DNA of 59,745 nt from assembly GCA_947589395.1 (NCBI GenBank), contig CANQAA010000002.1:1-59745 (forward strand), written 5' to 3'. This DNA is from an uncultured Clostridia bacterium (lineage in GTDB: Bacteria > Bacillota > Clostridia > Christensenellales > CAG-917). Of the stretch, positions 6,031-50,432 are shown one piece after another; within the stretch, counting starts at the first letter, position 1, and the number at the start of each line of letters is the position of its first letter. Under the pieces are notes generated by a model. It was given only the letters and a program-made list of their open reading frames with translations, had not been told where the DNA came from and searched no databases. The translations under genes were made by a program, and so were the position numbers.

Positions 6031-8208
6031 ATGAAAAAATCAAATCTTATAAAAAATGTTTTGTTGGTTTTATCATTCGCTTGTTTGATATTCTGTCTGT
6101 CGGCATGCTCTGATAAACGCGGGGTGAATGGCGCCGAAACTTACTATGATATAAACGTCGGCATCATTGTGACATTTGACGGAAAAGGTTCCTGCGACTA
6201 CGGCGGTATGATTTATAAATATGAGATCAAAAACGGATATTATTACATTTACGGCGACAACACTATCCTGCTCAAACAACCAAAAGACGGTGTGCTGGCA
6301 TTGGCGAATAGTTATGGCTACACGTTTGAAACTTCCGCACGCAGCGGCCCCTTGAACGAAAGCATTTATATTGGTCCGTCGGGTAGCATAACTTTGTCCG
6401 ACGACGGCACTTTTATCGGATCGGACGGATACTCGACCGTTATTGCAATCGGAAATTATTATTATAACGACGGCGTTTTGATGTTTGAACAAACAGCGGG
6501 GATAGACGCCAACGGCGGTTGGTCCACAGCGGTCAAATATTTCACGTTGTATGTGGAAGAGGTGACGGGAAGATTGGCGGACGTGCTGCTGAAAGATCCC
6601 GATTATTACAAAAGTTGGCACTTTGACAGCGAAAATGAAGATCCCTCGGGCGGACCCGAAACTCCTTCTTCCGCAAAACATTCGCTCACATACGATCTCA
6701 ACTATGACGGGCTGACGATTATATCGTCGCCGGTCGCCAAAAACGACTATGTGGAATTGCTTGTCCCAAAGCGCGACGGCTATGTTTTTGATGGTTGGTA
6801 TTATGAATGGTACCAAGTTGAAAGCGGCGTATGGCAGTACGATACAGACGTCACTCTGACGGCGCATTGGCGCGAGATGACCTACACGATCACCTACAAT
6901 GCAAACGGCGGAGATCTTCCCGAAAACAAGATGACATCTTTCTCGATCCTTAGCAACGATCTACCATATGCGTTGCCCATCCCCACCAAGGAGGGTTGCA
7001 ATTTTGAGGGCTGGTATGAGGACGAAAACTTTCTGAGTGGGAAAATAACAGAGATACCCAAAGGCAGCTTGCGCAACTACGTTCTGTATGCAAAATACAC
7101 CGACGAGGAGCTGTTGGAATTCGAGCTGTCGGATGACGAAGAATATTATACAGTCGTCGGCTTCAAAGGCTATCCGCAATACATTTCCGTGCCGGCGACA
7201 AAGGATGGAATGTCTGTCAAAGAGATAGCGGCGCGCGCTTTTGAAAATTGCAACTCATTGATCAGCGTCGCTCTTCCCGACGGCATAGTGAAGATAGGGG
7301 AGTCCGCATTTGATCATTGCTACAACTTGACCTCTATAAACTTCCCCGACGGTTTGACGACCATCGGCAGTTCCGCGTTTTCTTACTGCTATAAGCTGAG
7401 AACGGTTGACTTTCCCAAAAGCGTGACTTCCATCGGTTCAGCTGCGTTCAGCGATTGCGACAGCTTGACTGTTGTTGATTTGCCCGAAAACCTGACTGTC
7501 ATAAGCGCAGGAACATTTGGTTATTGCTACAACTTGATCGCTGTCGATTTCCCGGATGGACTGACGGCTATTGAATATGGTGCTTTCTGTAGTTGTTCAA
7601 AACTTGCTTCCGTGAACTTTCCCGATGGATTGACAAGCATAGGCGAACGTGCGTTCGAGTGTGACAACTTGACGACCGTAACGCTGCCTGACAGCATAAT
7701 GAGAGTAGGAAATAACGCTTTTGACGATAGATTGTGCACGCGATATGCAAATTGCTACTATTTGCCTACGAAGAGCAGTGCATATGGCGTTTTGTGCAAG
7801 AGCGTTTCGAATGACATTGTCAGTGTAAAGATACATGAGGGTTGCAAGGTTCTTGGCGATTGGGCATTCAATAGTTGCCACAGTCTCACGTCGTTAAGCC
7901 TTCCCGACGGCTTGATTTCCATCGGAGAATATTCCCTCTGTTACTTAACAACGATAATCATTCCCGCCAGCTTGACAAAAATGTATAGTTACAGCGGCAG
8001 TGATGTTATATTCTATAAGGGGAATGCCGACAGTTGGGACAGGATCGAGGGGCGGCCCGATTATTTAGCAGGCAAATTATATTATTTCAGCGCGGACGAG
8101 CCTGCGGACGACGGCAACTATTGGCACTATGCGCAGGATGGGACTACGCCCGAAATTTGGCAAAAGGAAGTTATCGGGGCAGCGTCGACAGAATACGCAA
8201 TAGGTTAG
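6031..8208 (+). CDS. surface lipoprotein with Listeria-Bacteroides (Flg_new-type) repeats and BspA-type leucine-rich repeats
   Basis: Signal peptide with lipobox (LIFCLSAC). Two Flg_new-like units (GYVFDGWYYEW...TLTAHW; CNFEGWYEDENF...LYAKY). About nine LRR units of form AFxxCxxLxSVxFPDGLTxIG (7180-7990). GAGGT SD. Confidence 0.85.
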   Translation: MKKSNLIKNVLLVLSFACLIFCLSACSDKRGVNGAETYYDINVGIIVTFDGKGSCDYGGMIYKYEIKNGYYYIYGDNTILLKQPKDGVLALANSYGYTFETSARSGPLNESIYIGPSGSITLSDDGTFIGSDGYSTVIAIGNYYYNDGVLMFEQTAGIDANGGWSTAVKYFTLYVEEVTGRLADVLLKDPDYYKSWHFDSENEDPSGGPETPSSAKHSLTYDLNYDGLTIISSPVAKNDYVELLVPKRDGYVFDGWYYEWYQVESGVWQYDTDVTLTAHWREMTYTITYNANGGDLPENKMTSFSILSNDLPYALPIPTKEGCNFEGWYEDENFLSGKITEIPKGSLRNYVLYAKYTDEELLEFELSDDEEYYTVVGFKGYPQYISVPATKDGMSVKEIAARAFENCNSLISVALPDGIVKIGESAFDHCYNLTSINFPDGLTTIGSSAFSYCYKLRTVDFPKSVTSIGSAAFSDCDSLTVVDLPENLTVISAGTFGYCYNLIAVDFPDGLTAIEYGAFCSCSKLASVNFPDGLTSIGERAFECDNLTTVTLPDSIMRVGNNAFDDRLCTRYANCYYLPTKSSAYGVLCKSVSNDIVSVKIHEGCKVLGDWAFNSCHSLTSLSLPDGLISIGEYSLCYLTTIIIPASLTKMYSYSGSDVIFYKGNADSWDRIEGRPDYLAGKLYYFSADEPADDGNYWHYAQDGTTPEIWQKEVIGAASTEYAIG

Positions 8209-8391: not shown

Positions 8392-9501
8392 TCATGCGAG
8401 TTTCAGCACAGTGATGTTTGCGCCGAAATACGACGTCGTCTGCCCCGATACGTTGTATATCGACAGCGTGGTGGGGACGGCGGCGGTGTAGATGATGGTC
8501 TTGCTCACGTTCGCCGCGCCCGTGTCTGTTGCGTTGTCCGATATGGTCTCGTTTGCGATGGGAGAGCCGTTCTCGTACAGTTGCACGCTCAGGTTGGCGG
8601 TGGTCGTACTCGTGCCCGAAGCGCCGTAGTTCACAAGGTAGGTGCCAACAGGCAGGCTCACCGCGTTATCCGCAACGGACAGAGTTGTCGCGGGAGTCGC
8701 CGCAGTCTGCGTGATGGGGATTATTGTGGCAGTGTCCACGCTTTGCGCGCCCGCGCTCGCATACAGTCCGTCGATGGCGGGGGAGGGGATGCCAAACGCA
8801 AAGTCGAACACCGTCGCCGTGCTCGGTCCGCTCGCCGTCACCGAAACGGTAGGCTCCGATCCTGCGGGCAGTTCCTCGACTGTTGCCGTAGGAGTGCCAA
8901 ACCCCGCCGCTTCGCCTGCGGGTCCGGCTACGCCTTGAGGACCTTGAGCGCCCGTTGCCCCTGCAGGACCTTGTGGACCTGTAGCTCCGGTCTCGCCTTG
9001 AGGTATGCCGAATGTGAATTCAAAGATTTGCGCCGTGCTCGGACCGCTTGCCGCCACAGTCACGGTCGGAGTCGACCCCGCAGGCAGGGCAGTCGCCGTT
9101 GCCGTTGGAGTGCCAAATCCTGCCGCTTCGCCTGCAGGACCCGCTACGCCCTGAGGACCTTGCGGGCCCGTTGCGCCCGTTGCTCCCGCAGGACCTTGCG
9201 GACCGGTAGCTCCCGTCTCGCCCTGAGGACCTTGAGGTCCTTGTGGGCCGATCGGGCCTTGCGGACCTGTTGCGCCGGGTATGCCTTGAGGGCCGGGCGC
9301 TCCCTGCGGACCGACGGGACCCTGCGGTCCTTGAAGCCCGCGCACATATTGCACGCTTGAGAACGATCCGCAGCATGGATTGACGGGCGCAGGTTGACAG
9401 CCGCAAGATGGGACGCCGAGAGGTTGGTTGCCAAAAGGAATGTTGGGATGGCAGCCCGTCTCGGGGCGATTGCAATTGTTTGAGCCAAAGTTGAAAAACA
9501 T
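8392..9501 (-). CDS. collagen-like triple-helix repeat protein with a Cys-rich N-terminus and a BclA-like C-terminal globular domain
   Basis: Long Gly-X-Y runs ([24 protein letters not shown]...). AGGAGG SD 6 nt upstream. The C-terminal 130 aa are rich in T/S/A/N, as in BclA/C1q-like exosporium fibre heads. The N-terminal 54 aa carry 6 Cys. Confidence 0.85.
8785..9222 (-). repeat. in-frame tandem duplication inside the collagen-like gene (two units of 74 and 71 codons)
   Basis: Unit 1 (9222-9001) and unit 2 (8997-8785) both encode [38 protein letters not shown]...LPAGS.PTV.V.ASGPSTA..F.F.FGIP. Unit 1 has one extra GXY triplet. Confidence 0.9.
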
Positions 9502-21199: not shown

Positions 21200-21270
21200 T
21201 TTATGCAAAATTTTTGCATAAAATTCATTTATGCACTCCGATTTTTGCATAAAATTGCAATTTTAGGGGC
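21200..21270 (-). promoter_or_regulatory. cluster of TGCA(T/A)AAAT boxes plus a CCCTAAAATTGCA module upstream of the 18347-21097 gene
   Basis: TGCAAAAT at 21204, TGCATAAAAT at 21215 and 21246 (spacings 11 and 31 bp). The revcomp of 21246-21270 is GCCCCTAAAATTGCAATTTTATGCA, homologous to 45843-45875. Confidence 0.45.
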
Positions 21271-21325
21271 GCGGTGTATAATTTTATTGTGAGAACAGAA
21301 TATTAGTCAATTGAAAAGGAACGGC

Positions 21326-21463
21326 TAAACGCGCACTCAATCGAAGACTTGCCTGAGAACGATGTCACTTGTTCGAAGCATAATAACGAGCACTCATTCG
21401 AAGCCCTGCTTGAGTACGACGGCTCTAATTCGAAGCGAAGGTAACGCGCACTCATTTGAAGGG
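21326..21463 (-). repeat. intergenic tandem repeat array (about 57-nt unit, about 2.4 copies), same family as 26330-26830 and 50112-50200
   Basis: Units TAACG(C/A)GCACTCA(A/T)T(C/T)GAAG... recur at 21326, 21383 and 21441. The reverse complement aligns to the 26741-26800 unit at about 45/60 positions. Confidence 0.75.
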
Positions 21464-21492
21464 AAGTTTCACAAAAAAAACTCAACACAGGT

Positions 21493-21539
21493 CATAAAAA
21501 GATAAAAATAAGGCGCTGCAAACGGGGTTGCAACGCCTT
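21493..21539 (-). terminator. intrinsic terminator of the 21567-23069 gene
   Basis: Minus strand: AAGGCGTTGCA...TGCAGCGCCTT stem (one G-U pair) followed by ATTTTTATCTTTTTA. Confidence 0.75.
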
Positions 21540-21566
21540 AAGAGGGAGAATTGGTTGTAACTGAAA

Positions 21567-23069
21567 TTAAAGTTTTATCTCGTCGAGACGATTCTTGACG
21601 CTCTCAAGCCACTCTTCCGCGCTGTTCTTTGCCGCTTGCATGGCTTGATCGAACGTCTCTTTTGCCTCTTCGAGCGTGGACGTTATGCTCGACTCGAGCT
21701 GTTTCACGCCTTCTATATCTTCTTCGGTGAGTTCCATCTTGTCGTAAACGCTCTGCTTTGCTTCGGATATCTTTGATATTGTGTTGTTCACGTCGAACAG
21801 GCTCTTGAAGTCTATCTTGTCAAGCCCGAGCCATTCGGACACGCCGTTCATAGCGTCCCATATCTTCGTGAACACGGCGTTTGCCTTTTCGCTTATCCCA
21901 AGCTGCTCGTTGAGTTCTGAGATCTTTTGCTTTATCGAAGAGAGAATGGCGGCAAGCGCGTCCTTGATGGACTGACTGTCCTTGCGCTCGATGGCGTCCT
22001 CTTCCCCTTGCTCCACGATGTCCATGACCTCTTCGTACGCCTCCTCGAAGGCGGGACGGGCGGACGCGTCGAGGTTGCGATAGAGCTCGTTCATATATGA
22101 GCGCACGCTCGTCTTCGTTATCTCGCCGTTTTCGTCCGCGATCTCCTTTTCGAAGATGTCCTCAGTCAGATTTTTGAAGAAAGAACCAACTTTTTTGAAG
22201 GCGTCCTTGACGTCGTCGAAAGTGAGAATGGGATTTTGAATGTATTCCTTCAAAGAGTTGTAATAGTGAGAAAGGGTGTTTTCCGTTGAGTTCAAAACCG
22301 CGTATACGTTTGCGTAAAGCACCTTTGCGGAGTTCTTTGCCGCCGCGACGATATTTTCGGAATGAAGGGTTTTTCCAACGAAATATACTGAATAAAGTCC
22401 GTCTCTTGCGATTTGGCGGGTGTTTTGCAACGCAAACCTCGCCTCCGCGACAGTGCGTTTGTAGAGCGTGCCGAGCTTTGAATCGTAAGTGCCGGCATAG
22501 TCGTTGACGGTCTTTAGCGCCTCGCTGTCGTTTGAAGGAAGGGAGCTCGCGTCAGAGCAAGCCATAGCCCTTGAGAGCATCCTGTATTTTCCTACGGACA
22601 TGTCGTAGCCCGCGCGCTCGATCTCGAACTTCGAGGCGAGGTCGAGGTCCTTTTGCACGTCGAGCTCGAAAGAGGCGAGAGCTTCGGACGCCTTCAAAAA
22701 TAGCTCCGAATCATTCTTTTCATCCAAAGAATACGCGCTTATCGACACGGTGCGTCTGTCTTCGGTTATATAGCCGTAGTCCTTTGCGAGTTGAACTATG
22801 TTTGCGAGCGCAACGCCGAGTTTTGCGTTGACGATGCCGCCCGCGTCAAACAACATCGCTCTCGCGTCGCCGTTTGCGCCGTACGCGCTCATCACGTTGT
22901 CGTTTTGGTCGAGGACGAGCTCGATGGACGGATTGATGTCAACGGCGACGAACGAGGTCGCCTTTGGCGGATCTTCGGTAGCGGGAGAGGGTCGCGCGTT
23001 GCACGCGACAAGGCAACTCATCAAAGCCAACGCCATTGCGGCGAGAAGCAAAATTTTGAGTTTTTTCAT
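21567..23069 (-). CDS. hypothetical alpha-helical lipoprotein
   Basis: MKKLKILLLAAMALALMSCLVAC lipobox and GGAGG SD. An N-proximal VDINPSIELVLDQNDNV segment is followed by a long charged, helical C-terminal half. Family not recognised. Confidence 0.8.
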   Translation of the reverse strand: MKKLKILLLAAMALALMSCLVACNARPSPATEDPPKATSFVAVDINPSIELVLDQNDNVMSAYGANGDARAMLFDAGGIVNAKLGVALANIVQLAKDYGYITEDRRTVSISAYSLDEKNDSELFLKASEALASFELDVQKDLDLASKFEIERAGYDMSVGKYRMLSRAMACSDASSLPSNDSEALKTVNDYAGTYDSKLGTLYKRTVAEARFALQNTRQIARDGLYSVYFVGKTLHSENIVAAAKNSAKVLYANVYAVLNSTENTLSHYYNSLKEYIQNPILTFDDVKDAFKKVGSFFKNLTEDIFEKEIADENGEITKTSVRSYMNELYRNLDASARPAFEEAYEEVMDIVEQGEEDAIERKDSQSIKDALAAILSSIKQKISELNEQLGISEKANAVFTKIWDAMNGVSEWLGLDKIDFKSLFDVNNTISKISEAKQSVYDKMELTEEDIEGVKQLESSITSTLEEAKETFDQAMQAAKNSAEEWLESVKNRLDEIKL

Positions 23070-23332
23070 ACCTCATCCTCCGATTATTAATTATGTTATC
23101 GCAAAAAACTTAACGGAATATAGTAAATATCATAAAGATTTGTTAAGAAACATATCGATTTTCGGACAAAATATATAGAAAATCCGTCCGAATTGCTTAA
23201 AAATCTTTCACAAGCGCGATTAAAAGTGAATTTTCGGTTGCCAAGAAAACTATTTGATGTATAATATATGTTGATATAATATTCACAATAACTATGTGCA
23301 TGGCGCAAAACGCGTCTCACAAAGAGGAAAAA

Positions 23333-26278
23333 ATGAAAAAAGTTTTGTTTACGGCGCTGCTTGTCGCGCTCATCGCCGTCGTGGCGGTCTCGGCAGTGGC
23401 GTGCAATCCGGACGGGAATCGCAGAAATCCCGGCTACAACGAGTACGAGACGGGCACCTACACCGTCACTTTCAACGCAAACGGCGCGGACAGCTCGACA
23501 GACGCGGCGAACCTCACCGGCGTTAAATACGGCTCGACCATCGCATATCCGACGGACGGCGACGGCAACAGATACGTCCCGACCAAGCTCGGATACAACT
23601 TCCTGTACTGGGAGTGGACGGATGCAAACGGCGCAACGCGGCAGTTCCGTTTCGAGGGCGAGAGCAACCCCGACGTCATCACCAAAAACACCACGATCAG
23701 CGCGGCGTACGAGGCGAAAAAGTTCGAACACGTCATCAACTACACCTCCGGACTGGAATATGAGATCATGTCAAACGGCAGCGTGAAATATTCCCTCGTC
23801 GACGACTTTTACGGAGCAGAGTGCAACAAGGTCACCATAACTCACAGCGACGGCGAGGAAGTCAAGTTCGTCTCGGAGTTCAAAAAGGCGAACGACAACT
23901 TCAAGTGCGCCTACATTGTCAACGCCGACGGCACTGTGAACACGGAGAACAAATTCTGCTTCTGGTATTACGTCATTCAGCAAAAGGACGATCAAGGCCG
24001 TCTTTTATACGTCAAGTCCGACGGCGAGCTCACCGCCGATCCTGCTGAGGCGATGAAAGACGCAAACGACGACCCGACGCCGTGTCTGAAGCCCATTCAG
24101 TTCACCAAGTGGAAGGAAGAGAGCAAGGACGTCGTCGCCTCTATGGAGACCTACGGGCTTTACGAGAGCCTCACGCTTTATCCCATGTTTGAGCAAAACT
24201 TGCCAAAGGTCACGGTCGAGTTCGAGGGCGGACACAGCGAAGTGTATCCCTTAAACGGCACGATCTACGAGAGCGTGAGCGAGGAGGCAAAGTCCCAACT
24301 CAACGTTTTGCAAGGCGAGGAGTTTGCATATTGGTATTATCAATTGGAAAACAAGGACAGCGAGGGCAACGTCACGTCGTACAGCGACTTCGAGTTCATC
24401 TTCAAGCCCGATCCTCAGGTCGACGAGGATGGCAATGAGGTCGAGCCGGAAGCCTCCAAGACCCCGACGGATCTTCGCGACGCAACGGGCAACAAGGGCG
24501 TGTTCACCCCCGTCACCCTCAATCTCAAGGCGAGGCGCGTGAGCGTGAGAAGGATGGAGAATCCCGCCGCGTTCGAGGCGTTCTGCAACGAGGCAAGAAA
24601 CTATTTCGCCGATGAGAGAACGCTTCTTGCAATAGAGGAGGGTCAGCGCACTCCCGAGCAAAAAGAGCAGCTCGAGGCGGTGCAGGCGAACATAAGGTCT
24701 TTGCTCACCGCAAAGCTCGTGTTTGCAAGCGGAATGAACTTTGTTTTGTCGGCGGACGACAAATATGCCCCCTTTGACGCGGCGCATGCGTTTGAGGGCA
24801 CGATAACGAGCGAAGGCGCCGCCGTCACGCTCACAATATCTCTTGACATCAACTTCAAAGACCTCTCCGAAGACGAGCTCAAAAAAACGGAATATTCGCT
24901 TTTCGGCTACGTCAAAGGCAAAATCGAGAACATAAACGTCGCTTTCAGCGCAAACGTGCAAAATATTCGCCTTGTGAAGGGCAATCTGTATATCGGCGCG
25001 TTGGCGGCGGAAAGCTCCGGAACGATAAGAAATTGCGAAGTCAACGTGGCGCAAGCGTCCTTCTTCGGCGGCGAGGAAGCAGACCTCGAGACGGGTGGCA
25101 GAGTGGTGTTCGGCGGTCTCGTCGCAAGAAACTCCAACCCCGAAGCGGAGGATGATATGGGCGTCATCGAGAGCGTGAGAGCGACCGTTAATAGTCTCGA
25201 CATTGTCCGCGTGAGCGCAACGGTCGGCGGTATCGTCGGCAACAACCTCTCCTCAACGTCAGTGAAAGAGAGCGAAGCGACGCTCACTCTCAACTCCATC
25301 GACGACGCGACCTTCAGGGCGATCCTCGAAGTGGGCGGCCTCACAGGCACGAACGGCGGCACGATAGAGGGATCTCACGCGACCATGCTTATGAATGCGG
25401 GCGCGCAACTCAAACTTTCAACGGGCACGCTGTCCATCGGCGCGCTTACGGGCAGAAACAGCCGCGCAGTCGTGAGAAGCTACGGCAAGATAGGCGCGCT
25501 TGCAACCGGAACGGAAAACGCGAAGGCGGTGGAGTTCACGTTGCTTGGCGGCGCTCTCAATGTGGGCGGGCTTGTCGGTCACAACGAGGGCTACGTCTAC
25601 GATTGCTACAGCGAGGACGTCATCACCGTCAACGCTCCCGCGACCGTGACTTCGGCTACTCTCAGCGTAGGCGGACTCGTCGGCAACAACAACGGCGACA
25701 AATTCAGCACCAGCCAAACGGAAACCAGCGTGGGCGCGATATCTTATAGCTACACTCGCGGCAGCATCCTGATCAACGTTGCGGACGGCGCAAAGAATGT
25801 CAACGTGAACGCGGGCGGCCTCAGCGGTCAACAGCTCAGCACCCGCCTCATGAACGCCTTCACGGCGATGTCCATCGACGCGCACATCAAGCTCGACGAG
25901 GGGCTCGGCAATCAGGCGAACATAGGCTATCTGTTCGGCAAGCTCTTTGAAAAAGCGGAGGACTCCACTTACAGGGCGAGACTCTACTATATCGACGACA
26001 ACGAGGGAGCCGGACTCAAGCTCAACGACGAGCCGTACAAGATCACCCAAAAGACGGAGGACGGCGAGGAAGAACCCACGTCCGAGAGCAATTTCGGCAA
26101 CATCTACGGCACGCTTATAAGCAGCAAGGAACTCAACTATTCGTTGCTCACCGACAACAGCAGCCTCAACTTCGACAGCCGCGAAAAAGCGGGCTCGACC
26201 TCTTCAAATCGTCTCTATGTGTGGACTCTGCCCGAGAGCGATGTGACCGAAGGCCCGTTCTATCCGACCTTGAACTGA
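23333..26278 (+). CDS. large surface lipoprotein with a Flg_new-type repeat and an array of GLUG-like repeats
   Basis: Preferred start MKKVLFTALLVALIAVVAVSAVAC (ATG 23333, AAGAGGA upstream). YTVTFNANG...GYNFLYWEW is the Flg_new-type repeat. Recurrent GGLVARNS / VGGIVGNN / GGLTGTNGG / GGLVGHNEG / GGLVGNNNG motifs are typical of GLUG beta-helix repeats. Confidence 0.85.
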   Translation: MKKVLFTALLVALIAVVAVSAVACNPDGNRRNPGYNEYETGTYTVTFNANGADSSTDAANLTGVKYGSTIAYPTDGDGNRYVPTKLGYNFLYWEWTDANGATRQFRFEGESNPDVITKNTTISAAYEAKKFEHVINYTSGLEYEIMSNGSVKYSLVDDFYGAECNKVTITHSDGEEVKFVSEFKKANDNFKCAYIVNADGTVNTENKFCFWYYVIQQKDDQGRLLYVKSDGELTADPAEAMKDANDDPTPCLKPIQFTKWKEESKDVVASMETYGLYESLTLYPMFEQNLPKVTVEFEGGHSEVYPLNGTIYESVSEEAKSQLNVLQGEEFAYWYYQLENKDSEGNVTSYSDFEFIFKPDPQVDEDGNEVEPEASKTPTDLRDATGNKGVFTPVTLNLKARRVSVRRMENPAAFEAFCNEARNYFADERTLLAIEEGQRTPEQKEQLEAVQANIRSLLTAKLVFASGMNFVLSADDKYAPFDAAHAFEGTITSEGAAVTLTISLDINFKDLSEDELKKTEYSLFGYVKGKIENINVAFSANVQNIRLVKGNLYIGALAAESSGTIRNCEVNVAQASFFGGEEADLETGGRVVFGGLVARNSNPEAEDDMGVIESVRATVNSLDIVRVSATVGGIVGNNLSSTSVKESEATLTLNSIDDATFRAILEVGGLTGTNGGTIEGSHATMLMNAGAQLKLSTGTLSIGALTGRNSRAVVRSYGKIGALATGTENAKAVEFTLLGGALNVGGLVGHNEGYVYDCYSEDVITVNAPATVTSATLSVGGLVGNNNGDKFSTSQTETSVGAISYSYTRGSILINVADGAKNVNVNAGGLSGQQLSTRLMNAFTAMSIDAHIKLDEGLGNQANIGYLFGKLFEKAEDSTYRARLYYIDDNEGAGLKLNDEPYKITQKTEDGEEEPTSESNFGNIYGTLISSKELNYSLLTDNSSLNFDSREKAGSTSSNRLYVWTLPESDVTEGPFYPTLN

Positions 26279-26295
26279 TAAAAAAAGCGCTATCA

Positions 26296-26325
26296 AAGCC
26301 GTCCAAACGGACGGCTTTTTGCTTT
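26296..26325 (+). terminator. intrinsic terminator
   Basis: AAGCCGTCC-AAAC-GGACGGCTT followed by TTTGCTTT. Confidence 0.8.
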
Positions 26326-26329
26326 ATTA

Positions 26330-26830
26330 ACTTCTCGACGTGCTCAAGCACGCAAACCTTGAAGGTTTGACTACAGAAGCGCGCTCGCTTTGAAAGCAAG
26401 AGAACCAAAAGCGCGAGATAGACTGCAGTTTGAAATAAGTTATCGTTTGCTCGCTAGATAGGTTATAGTTTATTAAACAATCCCCTCAGTCTGCGACCGC
26501 ATGTACGTTGCGCAGATTGAGGGGATTGTCAAACTACATTTCGTCTAAGAGCGTCTTTATTAAGCGTGCGTTACTATGTTTCAAACGAGTTATCATCATG
26601 TTCAAACTACACTTCGAACAAGTGCCGCCTTTTATAAGTACGCCCTGAGTAAGTGTTCGTTAGTTATGCTTTAATAAGTTCTCGTTGTGTTCAAGCAGGT
26701 CTTTGATTAGTGCTCGTTAGTTATACTTCGAATGAGTAATCGTCGTTTATAAGCACGCCCTGAATGAGTGCGCGTTAATTTGCTTCGAACAAGTGTGCGT
26801 TTAGTATAAGTGCGCTCCAATAAGCGATTG
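26330..26830 (+). repeat. intergenic array of degenerate tandem repeats (about 57-nt subunit, about 116-nt higher-order period), interrupted by a palindromic element
   Basis: TTTATAAGTACGCCCTGAGTAAGTGTTCGTTAGTTATGCTTTAATAAGT (26630) compares with TTTATAAGCACGCCCTGAATGAGTGCGCGTTAATTTGCTTCGAACAAGT (26746). Repeated GAGTGC(G/T)CGTTA...CTTCGAA cores occur throughout. Confidence 0.8.
26477..26529. repeat. 19-bp-stem palindromic element, a compact relative of the 49741-50111 element
   Basis: ACAATCCCCTCAGTCTGCG (26477-26495) pairs with CGCAGATTGAGGGGATTGT (26511-26529), with one G-T mismatch and a 15-nt loop. Both flanks are shared with the 49765-49797 and 50052-50078 arms. Confidence 0.85.
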
Positions 26831-26946
26831 CCTCGCTCTTATATGATAATATACTTATATATTTATATCTAATCCAAATTAAAATATGGGTGTGACGCGA
26901 TGTCAAAATGGACGAAAAAATTTTTTGAGTTTGTGCGTAATTTTGC

Positions 26947-26975
26947 TTGACAGAAAATATTGCAATAGCTAAAAT
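26947..26975 (+). promoter_or_regulatory. sigma-A-type promoter of the S10 operon
   Basis: TTGACA (26947-26952), 17 nt, TAAAAT (26970-26975). An AT-rich UP-like tract lies upstream. A leader of about 110 nt with two hairpins follows. Confidence 0.65.
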
Positions 26976-27087
26976 ATAGAGGCATATGTAAAAGTATGCC
27001 TGTTCCGTTGCGCCGCAACGGACAAAAAAATCAGGACGACACACACGGATAAGTGTTTAAGTAGGTAATATTCAGGAGGCTAAATAA

Positions 27088-27396
27088 ATGGCTGGACAAA
27101 AAATAAGAATCAAGCTCAAGGCTTACGATCACAACCTCATCGACCTTTCTGCAGAGAGGATCGTCGAGACTGTCAAGAAGACGGGCACGAAGGTCTCGGG
27201 GCCTATCCCTCTTCCCACAGACAAGGAAATCATCACCATCTTGCGCGCAACCCACAAGTATAAGGACAGCCGCGAGCAATTTGAACTCAGAACACACAAG
27301 CGTCTGATCGACATCTACAACCCGACGAAGTCCACAGTGGATTCTTTGATGAAGCTCGACTTGCCGGCGGGCGTGGACATCTCGATCAAGCTGTGA
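27088..27396 (+). CDS. rpsJ: 30S ribosomal protein S10
   Basis: [21 protein letters not shown]...; first gene of the S10 operon; AGGAGG SD. Confidence 0.97.
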
Positions 27397-27425
27397 TCTA
27401 ATAAATTAGGAGGATGAACTTTACC

Positions 27426-28061
27426 ATGAATAAAGCAATCATCGGAAAGAAAATCGGCATGAGCCAGGTGTTCACCAAAGAGGGCAAGGTCATTCCCGTC
27501 ACGGTAGTGGAAGCGGGTCCGTGCCCCGTCGTTCAGGTGAAGACGAAGGACAACGACGGCTACGACGCGATCCAGGTCGGATTCGGCGCAGTCAAGGAGA
27601 CGAGAGTCAGCAAGCCCGTTCAAGGGCACTACAAAAAGTCCGGCGTGACCGTCAGAAAGTATTTGCGCGAACTGAGACTCGCAAACTGCGCTGCCTACAC
27701 GGTAGGGCAGGAACTGACCTGCGATATCTTCGGCGAGGGCGACAGAGTCGACGTCACCGGCACTTCGAAGGGACACGGCTTTTCCGGCGTCATTCAGAGA
27801 TGGAACTCCCAAAGGATCGGTTCCATGACGCACGGCACAGGTCCCATCCACCGCGCGCCGGGTTCAATGGGCGCTTGCTCATCTCCGTCGAGAGTGTTCA
27901 AAAACAAGCATATGGCAGGTCAATGGGGTCATGAGCAGGTCACTGTTCAAAACCTGACCGTCGTGCGCGTTGACGCAAAGAGGAATCTTCTTTTGGTCAA
28001 GGGCGCCGTTCCCGGACCCAAAGGCGGTCTTGTCATCGTCAAGGAGTCCACGAAGGGCTGA
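27426..28061 (+). CDS. rplC: 50S ribosomal protein L3
   Basis: MNKAIIGKKIGMSQVFT matches the L3 N-terminus. The ORF-track ATG at 27414 abuts the AGGAGG with zero spacing, so I prefer ATG 27426. Confidence 0.93.
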   Translation: MNKAIIGKKIGMSQVFTKEGKVIPVTVVEAGPCPVVQVKTKDNDGYDAIQVGFGAVKETRVSKPVQGHYKKSGVTVRKYLRELRLANCAAYTVGQELTCDIFGEGDRVDVTGTSKGHGFSGVIQRWNSQRIGSMTHGTGPIHRAPGSMGACSSPSRVFKNKHMAGQWGHEQVTVQNLTVVRVDAKRNLLLVKGAVPGPKGGLVIVKESTKG

Positions 28062-45817: not shown

Positions 45818-45885
45818 AAAATGCATATTTATGCACAAAAATCTCCCTAAAATTGCATAATCGTTGCATAAAATCCGAAAATATC
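45818..45885 (+). promoter_or_regulatory. cluster of TGCA(T/C)A(T/A)(T/A) boxes plus a CCCTAAAATTGCA module upstream of the 45986 gene
   Basis: TGCA-type boxes start at 45822, 45832, 45854 and 45865 (spacings 10, 22 and 11 bp). TCCCTAAAATTGCATAATCGTTGCATAAAATCCGAAAATATC is homologous to modules at 21200-21270 (revcomp) and 50296-50340. Confidence 0.45.
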
Positions 45886-45985: not shown

Positions 45986-48900
45986 ATGAAAAAGAAATTT
46001 ACGTTTTTGATGATCGTCGCGCTCGTCGCGCTGCTCGTTGCGGTGACGATGGTCGCGTGCAATCCGAAAGATGCAAAATTCACGGTCACGTTCTCGCTTG
46101 GAGACGGGGTGGAAGGCGACGCTCCCGCGCCCATCAAGGCGGCTGAAAACGAACAGATCGTTCTTCCCAACGTCACGCGCGAGGGCTTCACGTTCTTGGG
46201 CTGGAGCGACGGGGAAAACACATATGCGCCCGGCGATTCCTTCACGGTCGTTGCGGACGTCACTCTCACCGCCACCTGGCATGACAATGACGCGCCCATC
46301 TACACCGTGACATTCTCGCTTGGCGAGCTCGAGGGCATCGCGACCCCCGTTCAGGCGATCAAGGCGGAGGCAAACGTGCCCATTGTGCTTCCCGCCGCCA
46401 CGCATACGGGCTACACGTTTTTGAGTTGGAGCGACGGCGACGACGTCTACACCGCCGGCTCATATTACACCGCGACTGCAGACGTCACCCTCACGGCGAA
46501 TTGGCGCAACGACAGCCTGCGCACTTTCACGGTGACGTTCTCGCTCGGCGAGCTTGCGGACTTGGCGGTCGCGCCTCAACCCCAAGTGGTAAACGACGGG
46601 GCGACGATACACCTTCCCGCCGCGCCTGTCATCGCGGAATACAACTTCCAATATTGGGAGCTTGAAGGCACGATCTCGCACTACGATGAAGACGACGAGT
46701 ACGAAGTCCGCGCGAACGTCACCTTCGTCGCCCGCTACCGCGACAACGGCAGAGTCCCTCAGGAATGGCGCGGGTCATGGATTGTCAAAGGGTCCGACGC
46801 TTGGGTTGCGTCGTCGATCTTCAACGAAGCGGTCATGTTGACAAAGGACGACATCTATTATTGCGGGTTCAAGGGCACGGACTATGAAGTCACCCAAACG
46901 GGTTCTATCAAGTTCAAAGTGACGTATTATTTCGGCGAAGTGGAAGAAATGACGCCGTTGATCCTTGAAGTTTACGAGGAGAACGACAAACTTTGGTTGC
47001 GCAGTTGGGGAAGGGCAGATTATGACTACAGTCAATCCACCGGTTCAAAACCCCCGTTTGCGCCCGATGAGTTGGAAAGGAAGACATATTCTGTGACGTT
47101 CTACGCTCTTCCCGATATAGAGCTTGGCGAAAATAACAATGTGTATTCCTATTATCTGCAGGACGACGGCACAGCCTCCGAAGAGGATCTTGCGGGAGTT
47201 CCCACTGCAGACGAGATGGAAGAGGGATTTGTCGGTTGGTACAGCATGAGGGGAGCAAACTATCCGCCGGAAGAGGAGTTTGACCCGGAACAAAAACTTT
47301 ATACCTACGTCACATATTACGCCAAATATTGCTTCTACGGCACATACAGGGACGAAGACGACAACTTTATCACTCTGGACGGAAAATATGCGTTTGTCAA
47401 CAGCGCTGCGGGCGAAGAATACAATCTGGATTATGAAACGAAAACTTTGTTTGTTGGTGCAAGAAGATACAAAATAAATTGGAACACATGGACGTTTGAG
47501 GACATCTCGGTCGACGCGGAGGAATTTGACGGCGAGTGGTACGGAATGTTCAAGGACAACACCTATTATAACTTCAAATTTAACGGAGTCGGATACGGTT
47601 GGATATATCTCACCGTTGCGGGACGCCCGGAGGATACGGGCACGTCAGTGCAATATACCGTTGCCGCTATCAACACAATTCAGTTTACTTTCAAAGGCGA
47701 GACCTACAGAATCGAGATCAATGATGACGGCACTCTCACAGTCAGCGACAACGAAAATGAATACGTTGTGGTCAAAAAAGGCACGGTTGTGGGCACATGG
47801 ACAAACAGCGACAAGAGCAACAAGCTGGTGTTTACTGCGGATACCGTATCCGTCAACGGCGAAACCGCCGTTGCATATGAAAAACAGGGGAGCACATATC
47901 TCGCTACATACAACGATGAGCAGCTCACGATAACCGTGAATGAGGTTGGCGTTTTGAGCGTTGCCTCAAGCAGTGACTCGAGCGAGATCGCGGACGATTA
48001 TATGCCCGGCGAAAACGGCTTTGTCCCGCCCGTGTTGGGGGTGAAGGATAAGTTCGAAGGCGTTTGGTATGGCGTGTACGGAATAACGACAGATTATGAA
48101 GGCGATGAATATACTGTATATATCGTCGTTACTTTGGACGGTTGGGGCAATGTCAGCGTTAAAAATTATTCCGTTTATGTGTTCGGTGAGCAAGAGTATG
48201 TTGAGAATGAATCGGGAGGAACAAATCATTATCAACTCACCGACGACGATCATATCACTTGGGTGATGACCGGAATGTATACGCTTTGGGGCGGTGAGTT
48301 CGCGGCAAATGGAACGCTCATATTCGACCATGAGGCGTCGGATAGATCAAAGAATCTTGTTTTGGTCAAGGTGGGCGAGATAGAAGCAAATTGGGTGAAC
48401 GAGAGCAACACAAAGGCGTTTGTTTTCAACGACGGTCAAGTCACATTTGGGGACTACACCGCACCTTACGTCAAGGGCGATGGCAATTGGACGGCGACTC
48501 TCAACAACGAAAACCTCACGTTCACGATCACGGAATACGGCAAGTTGGTCGTGACTTCCGACAACCCCGACAGTGAGTTTGCGGGCAACGATTTCCATCC
48601 GCAAAAGGAAGTCTCGCTTGTTGCGCCCGAACCCCCAACGCCCACAATTCCCGCAGAGTCCGAATATTACGGCACTTGGGAGGGCAGTGACAGTGATGGC
48701 GATTACACGCTCGTCATCAAGTCCGACAAGAGCGGCACGATCGACTATGACGCGGGCTACATGTCGGGGGAAGAACCGTTCGACGGTTCATTCACATGGA
48801 CATATGATCCTGCAACAGGCAAAATCAGCTTCACAGGCGCGTCATTCTATGGTGATGAACAATACAGTTGCTTGATAAGCGACGGTCAGATGATCATGAC

Positions 48901-49600
48901 CGTTTCGGGGTCAGACATTACTCTCACCAAAACAGCCGACGAAGGCAGCAAAGAGCAAGTGGACGATTCCGCGCAAGCATTTTACGGCACTTGGGAAGGC
49001 AGTGACGGAGACGGAGATTTCACGCTCGTCATCAAGTCCGACAAGAGCGGGACGATCGACTATGAACCTGATTATTGGGATGAAGAACCGTTCAACGGTT
49101 CATTCACATGGACTTATGATCCTGCGACGGGTAAAATCAGTTTCACAAGTGCGTCTTTCTATGAAGATGCCGATTATACTTGCGAAATTAGCGGCGGCAA
49201 GCTCGTGATGTCTTATGGAAGCACTTCCGTCACGCTCACCAAGACGTCGGGCGGTACAACCGGCGGCGACACAAGCGGTGGCGGACAGGACGTCCCGCCC
49301 GCAAAGGATCATGATGACGCTTGGTATCACAACGCGCTCAAAGGCAGTTGGAGCGGATTTGAACATACCGATGAATGGACATACTATCTTGAGTTCGACG
49401 GCGAAGGTAATGTTACATTGTCCTATGCCGATATCGGACCACATACGGTGCTCGAAACGGTAGCTTATACGATCAACGAAGATGGAACGATAACATTCCA
49501 TAAAACCTTTTCTTTCAAAATAGTTGTTGTTGATGAAACGCACATCACCGTTACAATGGACGGAGAGACCTACAATATCGAAAAGCTTCCAGAAGCATGA
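45986..49600 (+). CDS. large surface lipoprotein with three Flg_new-type repeats and a long modular Tyr/Thr/Gly/Asp-rich body
   Basis: MKKKFTFLMIVALVALLVAVTMVAC lipobox. Repeats are FTFLGWSDGEN...LTATW, YTFLSWSDGDD...LTANW and YNFQYWELEG. The remainder has recurring WYG/YGTW...LT(I/V)T modules of unknown family. Confidence 0.88.
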   Translation: MKKKFTFLMIVALVALLVAVTMVACNPKDAKFTVTFSLGDGVEGDAPAPIKAAENEQIVLPNVTREGFTFLGWSDGENTYAPGDSFTVVADVTLTATWHDNDAPIYTVTFSLGELEGIATPVQAIKAEANVPIVLPAATHTGYTFLSWSDGDDVYTAGSYYTATADVTLTANWRNDSLRTFTVTFSLGELADLAVAPQPQVVNDGATIHLPAAPVIAEYNFQYWELEGTISHYDEDDEYEVRANVTFVARYRDNGRVPQEWRGSWIVKGSDAWVASSIFNEAVMLTKDDIYYCGFKGTDYEVTQTGSIKFKVTYYFGEVEEMTPLILEVYEENDKLWLRSWGRADYDYSQSTGSKPPFAPDELERKTYSVTFYALPDIELGENNNVYSYYLQDDGTASEEDLAGVPTADEMEEGFVGWYSMRGANYPPEEEFDPEQKLYTYVTYYAKYCFYGTYRDEDDNFITLDGKYAFVNSAAGEEYNLDYETKTLFVGARRYKINWNTWTFEDISVDAEEFDGEWYGMFKDNTYYNFKFNGVGYGWIYLTVAGRPEDTGTSVQYTVAAINTIQFTFKGETYRIEINDDGTLTVSDNENEYVVVKKGTVVGTWTNSDKSNKLVFTADTVSVNGETAVAYEKQGSTYLATYNDEQLTITVNEVGVLSVASSSDSSEIADDYMPGENGFVPPVLGVKDKFEGVWYGVYGITTDYEGDEYTVYIVVTLDGWGNVSVKNYSVYVFGEQEYVENESGGTNHYQLTDDDHITWVMTGMYTLWGGEFAANGTLIFDHEASDRSKNLVLVKVGEIEANWVNESNTKAFVFNDGQVTFGDYTAPYVKGDGNWTATLNNENLTFTITEYGKLVVTSDNPDSEFAGNDFHPQKEVSLVAPEPPTPTIPAESEYYGTWEGSDSDGDYTLVIKSDKSGTIDYDAGYMSGEEPFDGSFTWTYDPATGKISFTGASFYGDEQYSCLISDGQMIMTVSGSDITLTKTADEGSKEQVDDSAQAFYGTWEGSDGDGDFTLVIKSDKSGTIDYEPDYWDEEPFNGSFTWTYDPATGKISFTSASFYEDADYTCEISGGKLVMSYGSTSVTLTKTSGGTTGGDTSGGGQDVPPAKDHDDAWYHNALKGSWSGFEHTDEWTYYLEFDGEGNVTLSYADIGPHTVLETVAYTINEDGTITFHKTFSFKIVVVDETHITVTMDGETYNIEKLPEA
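48656..49255 (+). repeat. near-identical in-frame tandem duplication (315-nt period, 2 copies) inside the 45986-49600 gene
   Basis: TACGGCACTTGGGA(G/A)GGCAGTGAC... starts at 48668 and again at 48983. The peptides YGTWEGSDSDGDYTLVIKSDKSGTIDY...FTWTYDPATGKISFT are repeated. Confidence 0.92.
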
Positions 49601-49621
49601 GCGAAATGAAAACCAAAAACG

Positions 49622-49648
49622 AGGACGGCAAGAGCCGTCCTTGTTTTG
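49622..49648 (+). terminator. intrinsic terminator
   Basis: AGGACGGC-AAGA-GCCGTCCT followed by TGTTTTG. Confidence 0.75.
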
Positions 49649-49740
49649 TATGAGCGGCGTTGGTTATCCCAACAAAAATGCGGATGTGTATGGACAAAAT
49701 TGAGACATGTATGCGAAAATTTGAAATATAACGCGTGCTT

Positions 49741-50111
49741 AATAAAGGACGCCCTTAGACAAAGTATAGTTTGACAATCCCCTCAGTCTGCGACCGCCCA
49801 AGCGGCGCAGCCAGCCCCCCTTACTAAGGGCGGCCTCGAGCGGGGGCTCTTGAAATATCACCAACCAACCGCGTTGAAGCATAGTTTGATGAGGGCTAAA
49901 AGAAAATGAAAAACTTGAGAATAACTTGCTTTCGCTCGAAGAGTTTTTGTAAAGAATAAAGCACAATGACTAATTTTGCTCAAACAGAGGATACGCTTTA
50001 TATTCCCACATAAGGCCGCCCTTTGTAAGGGGGGGGGGCTGCCCGAATGGGCTGAGGGGATTGTCATCTAATTTTCGCCGACAGGCGCACCATTTAGGGG
50101 CGTCCTTTATT
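49741..50111. repeat. 371-bp nested inverted-repeat element (MITE-like, invertible-segment-like or structured RNA)
   Basis: Three mirrored inverted blocks are present: AATAAAGGACGCCC (49741-49754 / 50098-50111), TGACAATCCCCTCAG (49772-49786 / 50052-50066) and CCCCCCTTAC(T/A)AAGGGCGGCCT (49815-49836 / 50013-50038). Confidence 0.8.
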
Positions 50112-50200
50112 ATGTGCGCGTTACTTATGCTTCGTACATGTGCTCGTTATGCTCAAACGGGGTTTCGATTGAGTGCGCGTTAATTTTGGTTCGAATTGGA
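50112..50200 (+). repeat. short array of the same ~57-nt repeat family as 26330-26830
   Basis: ATGTGCGCGTTACTTATGCTTCGTACATGTGCTCGTTATGCTCAAACGGGGTTTCGATTGAGTGCGCGTTAATTTTGGTTCGAATTGG. Confidence 0.7.
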
Positions 50201-50243
50201 AACTATCGCATCCACCCATGCTTTGAGCGGAAAAAGGTGGAAA

Positions 50244-50361
50244 TTTTATGCATAATTTCAAAAGTGGGCGATTTGATTGTACACAGTGTTGTTTTCACCC
50301 TTAAAAACAAATAAAAATGCATAAAATTTCAAAAATATACAGATTTTATGCATAAAATTTC
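50244..50361 (+). promoter_or_regulatory. three TTATGCATAA(A)AT boxes, including a perfect 16-bp palindrome, upstream of the giant protease gene
   Basis: ATTTTATGCATAAT is at 50244-50257. TGCATAAAAT is at 50318-50327. The perfect palindrome ATTTTATGCATAAAAT is at 50343-50358. The last two are 31 bp apart. Confidence 0.5.
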
Positions 50362-50403
50362 TTTTTAATTTAAATTTAATGTATATTTTTTGTATAAAAA
50401 CAG

Positions 50404-50432
50404 TTGCCTTTTTTGTTTATTGGTTATAGAAT
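50404..50432 (+). promoter_or_regulatory. sigma-A-type promoter candidate
   Basis: TTGCCT (50404-50409), 17 nt, TAGAAT (50427-50432). Confidence 0.4.

Follow-up and report, generated by a model that had tools for sequence, protein, structure and literature searches.

What are the degenerate tandem repeats that lie between a lipoprotein gene and the S10 operon of an uncultured gut Clostridia bacterium, and why do similar repeats recur at other intergenic sites nearby? The question concerns positions 26330 to 26830 of a 59,745-nt stretch of DNA (contig CANQAA010000002.1 of assembly GCA_947589395.1), analysed here as a whole and called the window. An earlier note, made by reading the sequence alone, had described a family of ~57-nt units at three intergenic loci, here named A, B and C, and had offered three explanations: a genome element like REP or the Bacterial Interspersed Mosaic Elements (BIME), an RNA array derived from 3' untranslated regions (UTR), or a protein-binding array. 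Of these options the first fits best. We lean towards the reading that the 57-nt units form one module of an interspersed mosaic repeat that is lineage-specific and non-coding, and that is probably selfish or neutral DNA.

The 57-nt family is real. Tandem Repeats Finder gave a period of 57 at 21328-21461 (2.3 copies, 77% matches) and at 26631-26794 (2.9 copies, 68% matches), and an nhmmer profile built from eight units found about ten degenerate units over the three intergenic loci, with no further significant copy outside them in the window. The description of three loci with degenerate ~57-nt tandem units was thus borne out, at two of them by Tandem Repeats Finder and at all three by nhmmer and blastn. 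A hand alignment of A and B with about 45 identities in 60 agrees with the blastn match of 21366-21455 to 26795-26706 (75.8% over 91 nt, E 4e-11), and A and C are related at 75.6% identity (21372-21451 against 50195-50114, self-blastn, E 6e-9). The two uninterrupted blocks singled out by eye, GAATGAGTGC and TGCTTCGAACAAGTG, were both found in each arm of a repeat pair, I3. With up to two mismatches, the 15-mer AWTGAGTGCGCGTTW occurs 6 times against 0.81 expected, a count that none of 100 shuffles reached. The recurrence of TTCGAA in the units was also confirmed, since 7 of the 22 TTCGAA of the window sit in 1.2 kb of arrays. A higher-order period of ~116 nt, proposed at the same time, proved weak because identity at lags of 114 and 115 nt is about the same as at a lag of 57.

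The 57-nt unit is itself dimeric, made of two related halves of ~26 and ~31 nt. Both halves start with CTTCGAA-NN-AGTG-N2-3-CGTT (the half-unit motif can also be written TTCGAA-AGTGCGCGTTA); half a consists of CTTCGAATGAGTGCGCGTTA and ~6 nt, and half b of CTTCGAAYAAGTG-N3-CGT.. and ~12 nt. The direct-repeat units contain a conserved 19-nt block and a variable spacer, but pairwise identity between units is only 58-86% and the conserved block is itself degenerate. Units of different loci (A2-C1 86%, A2-B3 84%, B3-C2 85%) are at least as close to each other as neighbours of the same array (B2-B3 69%), which indicates that multi-unit blocks have been dispersed and not only amplified in place. The parts recognized at the three loci are the following:

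21308-21461, minus strand: array A, 2.7 units (21461-21405, 21403-21349 and a partial unit at 21345-21308; nhmmer E 6e-15, 2e-14 and 1e-3).
26317-26352, plus strand: a direct half unit standing alone on the left of the core of locus B (blastn of 26317-26350 against 26664-26697, 82% over 34 nt).
26478-26528, no strand: palindromic core of locus B, CAATCCCCTCAGTCTGCG, a 13-nt loop and TGCGCAGATTGAGGGGATTG, forming an 18-bp stem.
26529-26554, plus strand: conserved linker from the core half-site to the first unit, AAACTACATTTCGTCTAAGAGCGT.
26555-26830, plus strand: array B, ~4.6 units and a tail ending ..AAGCGATTGCC (nhmmer E 2e-13 to 2e-3).
26555-26607, 26608-26642 (half), 26643-26699, 26702-26757 and 26758-26813, plus strand: the units of array B.
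49693-49757, minus strand: left arm of element C, about one inverted unit (pair I10, 49729-49757 against 50095-50123, 86% complementary).
49775-49836, plus strand: left core module of element C, CAATCCCCTCAG, a TCTGCG..CGCAG hairpin and then the CCCCTTACTAAGGG hairpin.
49837-50012, no strand: central segment of element C, 176 nt, read by eye.
50013-50063, minus strand: right core module of element C, inverted (pair I7, 49807-49836 against 50013-50042, 90% complementary; pattern match at 50052-50063).
50104-50202, plus strand: array C, 1.7 units (50104-50161 and 50164-50202; nhmmer E 2e-13 and 9e-9).

The first reading overlooked that the arrays are linked, at two of the three loci, to a palindromic core shared with related genomes. 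A blastn match (81% over 96 nt, E 2.5e-17) relates 26491-26585 to the reverse complement of 49720-49810. A core half, the linker and the first unit have therefore been kept together in the right part of B and the left part of C, and the basic block is a core half-site CTGAGGGGATTGTC, a linker of ~25 nt and then n tandem 57-nt units. This block occurs without the core in A, which is a solo array, with an inverted core half in B, and as two inverted blocks round a 176-nt centre in C. The palindromes combine with other motifs in differing mosaics across A, B, C and a locus of a related species, L137, described below.

Locus B had been taken as one array over 26330-26830. Its units do run from 26555 on, whereas 26330-26554 is mostly something else: one direct half unit (26317-26352), unrelated sequence and the palindromic core. 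The half unit gives a Smith-Waterman score of 37 against a maximum of 30 in 500 shuffles. Both halves of the core were recovered by pattern search, its stem is retained in the centroid fold, and the composite as a whole folds with a z-score of -3.8. Compared in inverted orientation, the left and right parts of B score no higher than shuffles in Smith-Waterman alignment, i.e. the left side has no significant inverted arm.

The third locus had been given as a plain array at 50112-50200. The units are present there, but they form part of a 480-nt inverted-repeat element (49693-50202), a foldback that makes one long hairpin (z -7.7 as RNA, -9.1 as DNA). Its right part aligns with the reverse complement of its left part at a Smith-Waterman score of 38, against a maximum of 26 in 500 shuffles. 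The core box recurs at 49775-49786 and, inverted, at 50052-50063, giving 4 pattern matches in the window against 0.14 expected. The 176-nt centre has no Rfam match, and its sole match elsewhere is a 15-mer, TTTGCTCAAACAGAG, in common with L137. The right core module contains a run of ten G (50029-50038) opposite a six-C run in the left module, a slippage-prone tract. We rejected foldback as a description of the whole family, given the missing left arm of B and the single arm of A; since only part of the copies have this form, "mosaic" is the better name.

The core module, in full, is GACAATCCCCTCAG, a first hairpin of variable sequence, and then a CCCCTT..AAGGGG hairpin (GCTCCCCTT..AAGGGGAGC). 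We collected 22 copies from the window and from loci of four related metagenome-assembled genomes (MAGs), namely L004, L012, the Lapin-014 loci and L137; the inspected copies lie between open reading frames (ORFs). Copies vary in the stem of their first hairpin (TCTGCGC, TCACC, GCACC, TCCGCCGA, TCCGCTC), and the predicted fold keeps this stem paired in most of the 22. The window thus contains a short extragenic palindrome of the REP/BIME kind, as the 18-bp stem at 26478-26528 and as half-modules in C. Among GTDB species genomes, true matches to the 18-nt core were confined to "uncultured Clostridia" MAGs from rabbit gut: Lapin-014__bin23 (7 contigs), Lapin-011__bin67 and Lapin-002__bin27. The spread over 7 contigs is a hint of the tens to hundreds of copies per genome usual for REP or BIME elements. 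The left core of C is 77-80% identical to the Lapin-014 loci L007, L008, L009 and L015 (E 1e-7 to 3e-9), and the 57-nt units of the window were absent, according to the unit profile, from the Lapin loci examined. The core module is kept across a family-level clade, with species-specific partner modules. The S10 protein of the window is identical to those of Lapin-014__bin23 and GCA_947628255.1, the MAG of L137; the rpsJ-rplC region is 84-87% nucleotide-identical to these relatives, and the window falls outside their group.

Several variations of the core module and its partners were observed in the related MAGs. Some core copies carry a further small palindrome nested in the loop of the second hairpin. 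At L004 3469-4004 (Lapin-011__bin67) core modules stand in tandem, with periods of 76, 111 and 187 and 91-94% matches, and a T run comes after the second hairpin, as at an intrinsic terminator. In Lapin-014__bin23 (L013 1330-2090 and L014 120-430) core modules are interleaved with another abundant unit, GGGGAT(TC/GT)TTCGACTNCGCTCA(GA/AC)ATGACAG. Paired substitutions distinguish the two variants of this unit (ATTCT/AGAAT in one, ATGTT/AACAT in the other), a sign that a small hairpin may be conserved. Near mosaic repeats of the same MAG, L009 1000-1108 (minus strand) gives a sub-threshold match to the Clostridiales-2 RNA (29 bits against a gathering threshold of 58.6, E 0.006).

A comparable composite is found at the same place in a second species. 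In L137/L144 (GCA_947628255.1) it lies between the upstream gene and the rpsJ promoter, as follows:

L137 7082-7545: inverted unit at 7082-7133, core module ending ..CTGATGGGATTGTC, tandem array at 7345-7545.

The L137 array has a period of 56-57 (73% matches), and its two halves measure 25 and 32 nt. The composite folds with a z-score of -4.4, and its outer stem pairs ~7085-7115 with ~7500-7545. Four relatives (L136; L138, with L139, L143 and L145; L140; L141) have a short empty gap upstream of rpsJ, and L137 is nested among these relatives with an empty site. Filled and empty sites are thus seen across species, with flanks too diverged to place the ends of the element or a duplication. From this presence and absence, together with the dispersal of the blocks, we infer that the element would be mobile. 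A comparable array upstream of rpsJ in a second species may reflect insertion-site preference or long-term retention. The relatedness of the window and L137 arrays rests partly on their shared period, dimer layout, core and location.

The neighbourhood of array B differs between the window and its relatives. Synteny breaks at this array (window 26279-27087 against L136-L141): all sampled relatives have a chromate transporter, a radical SAM protein, TSCPD and Peptidase_M28 upstream of rpsJ, a block that is absent from the window, where a lipoprotein gene adjoins array B in its place. One further contig, L142 (ENA ERZ27059666), is 100% identical to window 26349-27725 and ends inside the left part of locus B, which would fit an assembly break at a repeat; its coverage is 1.8x. 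The organism is present in ENA assemblies ERZ27059666 and ERZ27249386, and probably in Logan runs SRR29273037 and SRR29273042. Exact-protein look-ups found no record of the aldolase or of the 994-aa protein of the window, and those with S10 and IF-1 gave only short fragments of low coverage.

The repeats had been reported to lie just 3' of surface-lipoprotein genes. The terminators and promoter-like sites that frame the arrays are:

21509-21540, minus strand: intrinsic terminator of the 500-aa lipoprotein gene (21567-23069, minus strand), a 13-bp stem and then a T run.
26295-26318, plus strand: intrinsic terminator of the 994-aa lipoprotein gene (23294-26278), a 10-bp stem and then a T run.
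49618-49645, plus strand: terminator hairpin of the 1204-aa lipoprotein gene (45986-49600), stem GAGGACGGC/GCCGTCCTT and then TGTTTTGT.
21310-21281, minus strand: promoter-like site of locus A, with a -35 hexamer that overlaps the last partial unit.
26947-26975, plus strand: promoter-like site of the rpsJ (S10) operon, TTGACA, 17 nt, TAAAAT (11 of 12 consensus positions).
50404-50432, plus strand: promoter-like site of locus C.

The hairpin at ~49618-49645 was given to the minus strand by an automated terminator scan; its plus-strand assignment comes from reading of the stem and from the fold. The region of 26947-26975 aligns with the rpsJ upstream regions of relatives. At all three loci the order is stop codon, terminator hairpin, array, and promoter-like site of the next co-directional gene, whose start codon is 140-280 nt from the array. 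Since the arrays lie between a terminator and the next promoter-like site, their DNA is probably not transcribed. The three upstream genes all begin with lipobox signal peptides (domains RsgI_M, Flg_new and GLUG), so that the claim that arrays follow the terminator of a co-oriented lipoprotein gene holds within the window. It does not hold as a general rule, and the family is not specifically tied to the 3' ends of such genes: in L137/L144 the composite sits downstream of a Peptidase_M28 gene, which does not encode a lipoprotein. Each of the three gaps is just as much the 5' region of what follows it, namely the gene of a 939-aa lipoprotein, the S10 operon and the gene of a 2724-aa subtilase/LRR protein. 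Both genes that flank a main array run in its direction, and units in the opposite orientation also occur (49721-49757 and L137 7082-7133). As arrays occupy 3 of ~8 long gaps, an approximate count, the association with lipoproteins is not significant here. We conclude that the link to lipoprotein genes is local to the window and not general.

The surface-protein genes of the window have repeats of their own. A ~315-nt internal duplication is present in the 1204-aa lipoprotein gene (48664-48898 and 48979-49210, 78-91% identical); beyond its Flg_new domains, this protein has no orthologue in a collection of 5.8 billion proteins. The 500-aa lipoprotein has distant relatives at 25-44% identity, on contigs that stop after the gene or have short 3' gaps. 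A collagen-triple-helix repeat gene (8392-9501, minus strand), convergent with a BspA-LRR/Flg_new surface-protein gene, shows internal periods of 9/18/36 nt and 216 nt. A partly palindromic motif centred on ATGCA, TTTATGCATAAAAT, clusters upstream of large surface-protein genes (window 21200-21255, 45828-45841 and 50243-50398; L007 3375-3554 and 4865-4926), with 14 matches at up to two mismatches against 0.93 expected; these clusters look like a candidate operator for a shared regulator. The promoter region of the subtilase gene is kept upstream of its orthologue in MAG Lapin-014 (68% over 142 nt).

The units are non-coding. As the earlier note had held, no reading frame is conserved: stops break nearly every frame, and none is open across the arrays. 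A 61-aa ORF over array A has no relative and shares no words with any of the 5.8 billion proteins. A blastx comparison, proposed beforehand as a check for a decayed coding gene, gave only self-overlaps and no coding match when the three loci were run against all window ORFs and fetched homologues. Over the window, Rfam gave no match at gathering threshold and only chance-level matches at E up to 1 (loci B and C), and no tRNA gene was found. No blastn match was found in plasmid and phage collections, viral scans with unit and core patterns gave chance matches only, and in the literature the motif strings appeared only as unrelated primer sequences. A metagenome scan with GAWTGAGTGCGCGTTW returned 120 loci, all chance 16-mer matches (one of them, L068, inside an ABC-transporter gene), and the unit profile matched its seed only.

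Several specific identities were tried and rejected. A SigI-type promoter (ATCCCC..CGAA) was excluded by inspection for want of CGAA at the right distance, and a promoter within the units (TTCGAA, 15 nt, TATAAG) because its two parts stand too close together and array A does not keep the motif. No RYYYAAC/GTTRRRY pair of an attC integron cassette is evident, by inspection and with no pattern search run, at the foot of the core hairpin; the integron reading is also opposed by the terminator-like and promoter-like sites that the neighbouring genes have of their own and by the lack of an integrase domain in 18 ORFs scanned. The units do not resemble CRISPR, as they are degenerate and abut head to tail with the whole 57 nt repeated, and no cas domain was seen in the ORFs scanned. 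Plasmid or phage iterons do not agree with a chromosomal context (S10 operon, mfd, pth, fructose-bisphosphate aldolase) without rep genes.

The reading of the family as a mosaic repeat suggests how these distributions may have arisen. If the element is selfish or neutral and acts at the level of DNA, its copies would arrive at new sites through trans-mobilisation, or through recombination at the palindromic core, and would persist where insertion is harmless, in the untranscribed stretch that separates a terminator from the following promoter. Once in place, an array would lengthen, shorten and diverge through replication slippage or unequal exchange. That arrays share the orientation of genes and lie near lipoprotein genes would be a by-product of where long tolerant gaps lie, and not a function.

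Several points weigh against this reading. The arrays of the window and of L137 are weakly similar (66.7% over 93 nt, with an E of 9e-5 in a small search space), and their Smith-Waterman alignment has a z-score of ~4, with one shuffle scoring higher. The 57-nt dimeric period is kept in two species ~13% apart in ribosomal-protein genes, and this could reflect a constraint (a bound protein, for example) of a kind not expected if the element were purely selfish. The foldback layout suits C and L137 and not every copy, the left arm of B not being significant. The basis consists of three loci in one 60-kb contig and one locus in a relative. No target-site duplication or exact element ends were found at the loci examined, and no transposase domain, RAYT included, among the 18 window ORFs scanned.

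The kept dimer period makes a DNA-binding platform the main rival, although we hold it unlikely. The arrays would be a putative operator-like or iteron-like platform acting on the downstream promoter (S10 operon or surface-protein genes), with a regulator, nucleoid or partition protein as candidate binder of repeats spaced ~26 and ~31 nt. Direct repeats with a conserved block, a variable spacer and no single-strand structure are what such a platform would look like; each array stands 140-280 nt before a start codon and ahead of a promoter-like site, except at A, where the -35 hexamer overlaps the last partial unit; and a second species shows the period and the dimer layout again, ahead of the same rpsJ promoter. 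On the other hand, the array is absent upstream of rpsJ in four of six related species, and therefore dispensable there. The degeneracy of the units extends to the conserved block, the 28.5-nt spacing does not correspond to a whole number of helical turns, no gene for a candidate regulator was seen beside the arrays among the ORFs scanned, and beyond the core there are also inverted units.

A further explanation, which we consider unlikely, takes the elements for prokaryotic transposons of the foldback type. The box and variable-sequence hairpin of the core module would be the putative recognition site of a hairpin-specific recombinase or transposase common to a clade of gut Clostridia, and the 57-nt arrays its subterminal binding sites. 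If this were true, pairs such as A and B, which bracket 21.3-26.8 kb, could move or invert surface-protein genes.

It is doubtful that the arrays are recombination substrates serving variation of surface proteins by inversion, deletion or cassette exchange. The outward-pointing, inverted arrays A and B do bracket two divergently transcribed lipoprotein genes (21.3-26.8 kb), the break of synteny falls at array B, where the relatives' Peptidase_M28 block is missing, and the 1204-aa lipoprotein is without orthologue elsewhere. However, identity between arrays is only ~76% over 90 nt, poor for homologous recombination. In addition, the gene of the RsgI_M-domain lipoprotein and a large neighbour (of Flg_new type in the window) are also adjacent and divergent in L297, and hence not obviously a mobile cassette; L298 has gene content related to that RsgI_M/Flg_new pair.

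A role as transcribed RNA elements, either read-through 3' UTRs or small RNAs derived from them, acting by sequence motifs, seems very unlikely. It would agree with the longer arm of each element being co-oriented with the upstream gene, and transcripts of the composites B and C, if made, would fold into very stable hairpins. Strong intrinsic terminators nevertheless precede every array, units occur in both orientations, and no Rfam family is matched. The direct arrays are unstructured and fold no better than shuffles (B plus strand z +0.96, B minus strand z -0.54, L137 z +0.24); locus A with its terminator (21290-21566) does marginally better (z -1.6), and its centroid keeps little besides the terminator hairpin. 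Since the arrays start after terminators and the direct arrays fold like shuffles, the structured 3'-UTR array suggested by the earlier note is unlikely, and the units are probably not an RNA element. That the arrays are decayed coding sequence, in which the 57 nt would be the trace of 19 codons from a repeat-domain gene or from repeats at the C terminus of a surface protein, is scarcely credible: the period is a multiple of 3 and neighbouring genes encode repeat-rich surface proteins, but the frames are broken and not conserved, and neither a protein homologue nor a blastx match was found.

These repeats have practical consequences. They would break short-read assemblies, as the end of L142 may show, and attract spurious ORF calls, and their variable repeat number could serve for strain typing in this lineage of uncultured gut Clostridia.

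By architecture, one of the closest likenesses is to BOX of Streptococcus pneumoniae (boxA, n boxB, boxC), also a modular composite intergenic repeat of a Firmicute. In both, one module stands in tandem with variable copy number and other modules provide inverted complementarity. A BOX element is a composite in which boxB forms a variable tandem array; such elements occur in clusters together with other repeats, with an enrichment in tolerant sequence 3' of genes (PMC3049150). The copies described here likewise cluster or nest with other repeats and prefer tolerant sequence 3' of genes. The behaviour of the mosaic family would thus match, by analogy, that documented for the pneumococcal BOX, RUP and SPRITE repeats (PMC3049150). 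BOX differs in that its tandem module of 45 nt lies between inverted ends, whereas here the units are outside the palindromic core and form arms; moreover, the 57-nt unit is a dimer and much more degenerate.

BIME of enterobacteria and NIME of Neisseria (REP or dRS3 palindromes with motifs) likewise join a short conserved palindrome to motifs in variable combinations and orientations. They are extragenic, often follow terminators and have a species-specific consensus. NIMEs cluster near surface-protein genes. Unlike in these elements, the core of the window is a conserved box followed by a hairpin of variable sequence, and its partner is a long degenerate minisatellite instead of short fixed motifs. 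A further difference from BIME is that no RAYT gene was seen among the 18 ORFs.

MIRUs are units of 40-100 nt in short tandem arrays at many intergenic loci, co-oriented with the flanking genes. The window resembles them in having tandem units of that size, gene-co-oriented, at several intergenic loci (three loci, 1.7-4.6 units). MIRUs, however, lie inside operons and contain small ORFs overlapping the stop and start codons of their neighbours; the arrays of the window are beyond terminators, have no open frame across them and are attached to a palindromic core. Finally, C and L137 recall the foldback transposons of eukaryotes and the miniature inverted-repeat transposable elements with subterminal repeats: both C and L137 have long unequal inverted arms of degenerate tandem sub-repeats around a variable centre. 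The elements described here are prokaryotic and ~0.5 kb long, with no transposase, exact ends or target-site duplication defined, and A and B are not foldback. Species-specific interspersed repeats are common in bacteria, so that, on present evidence, this family extends a known phenomenon and reveals no new one. The simplest account, by analogy with these systems, would be that it belongs with the BOX, BIME, NIME and MIRU classes.

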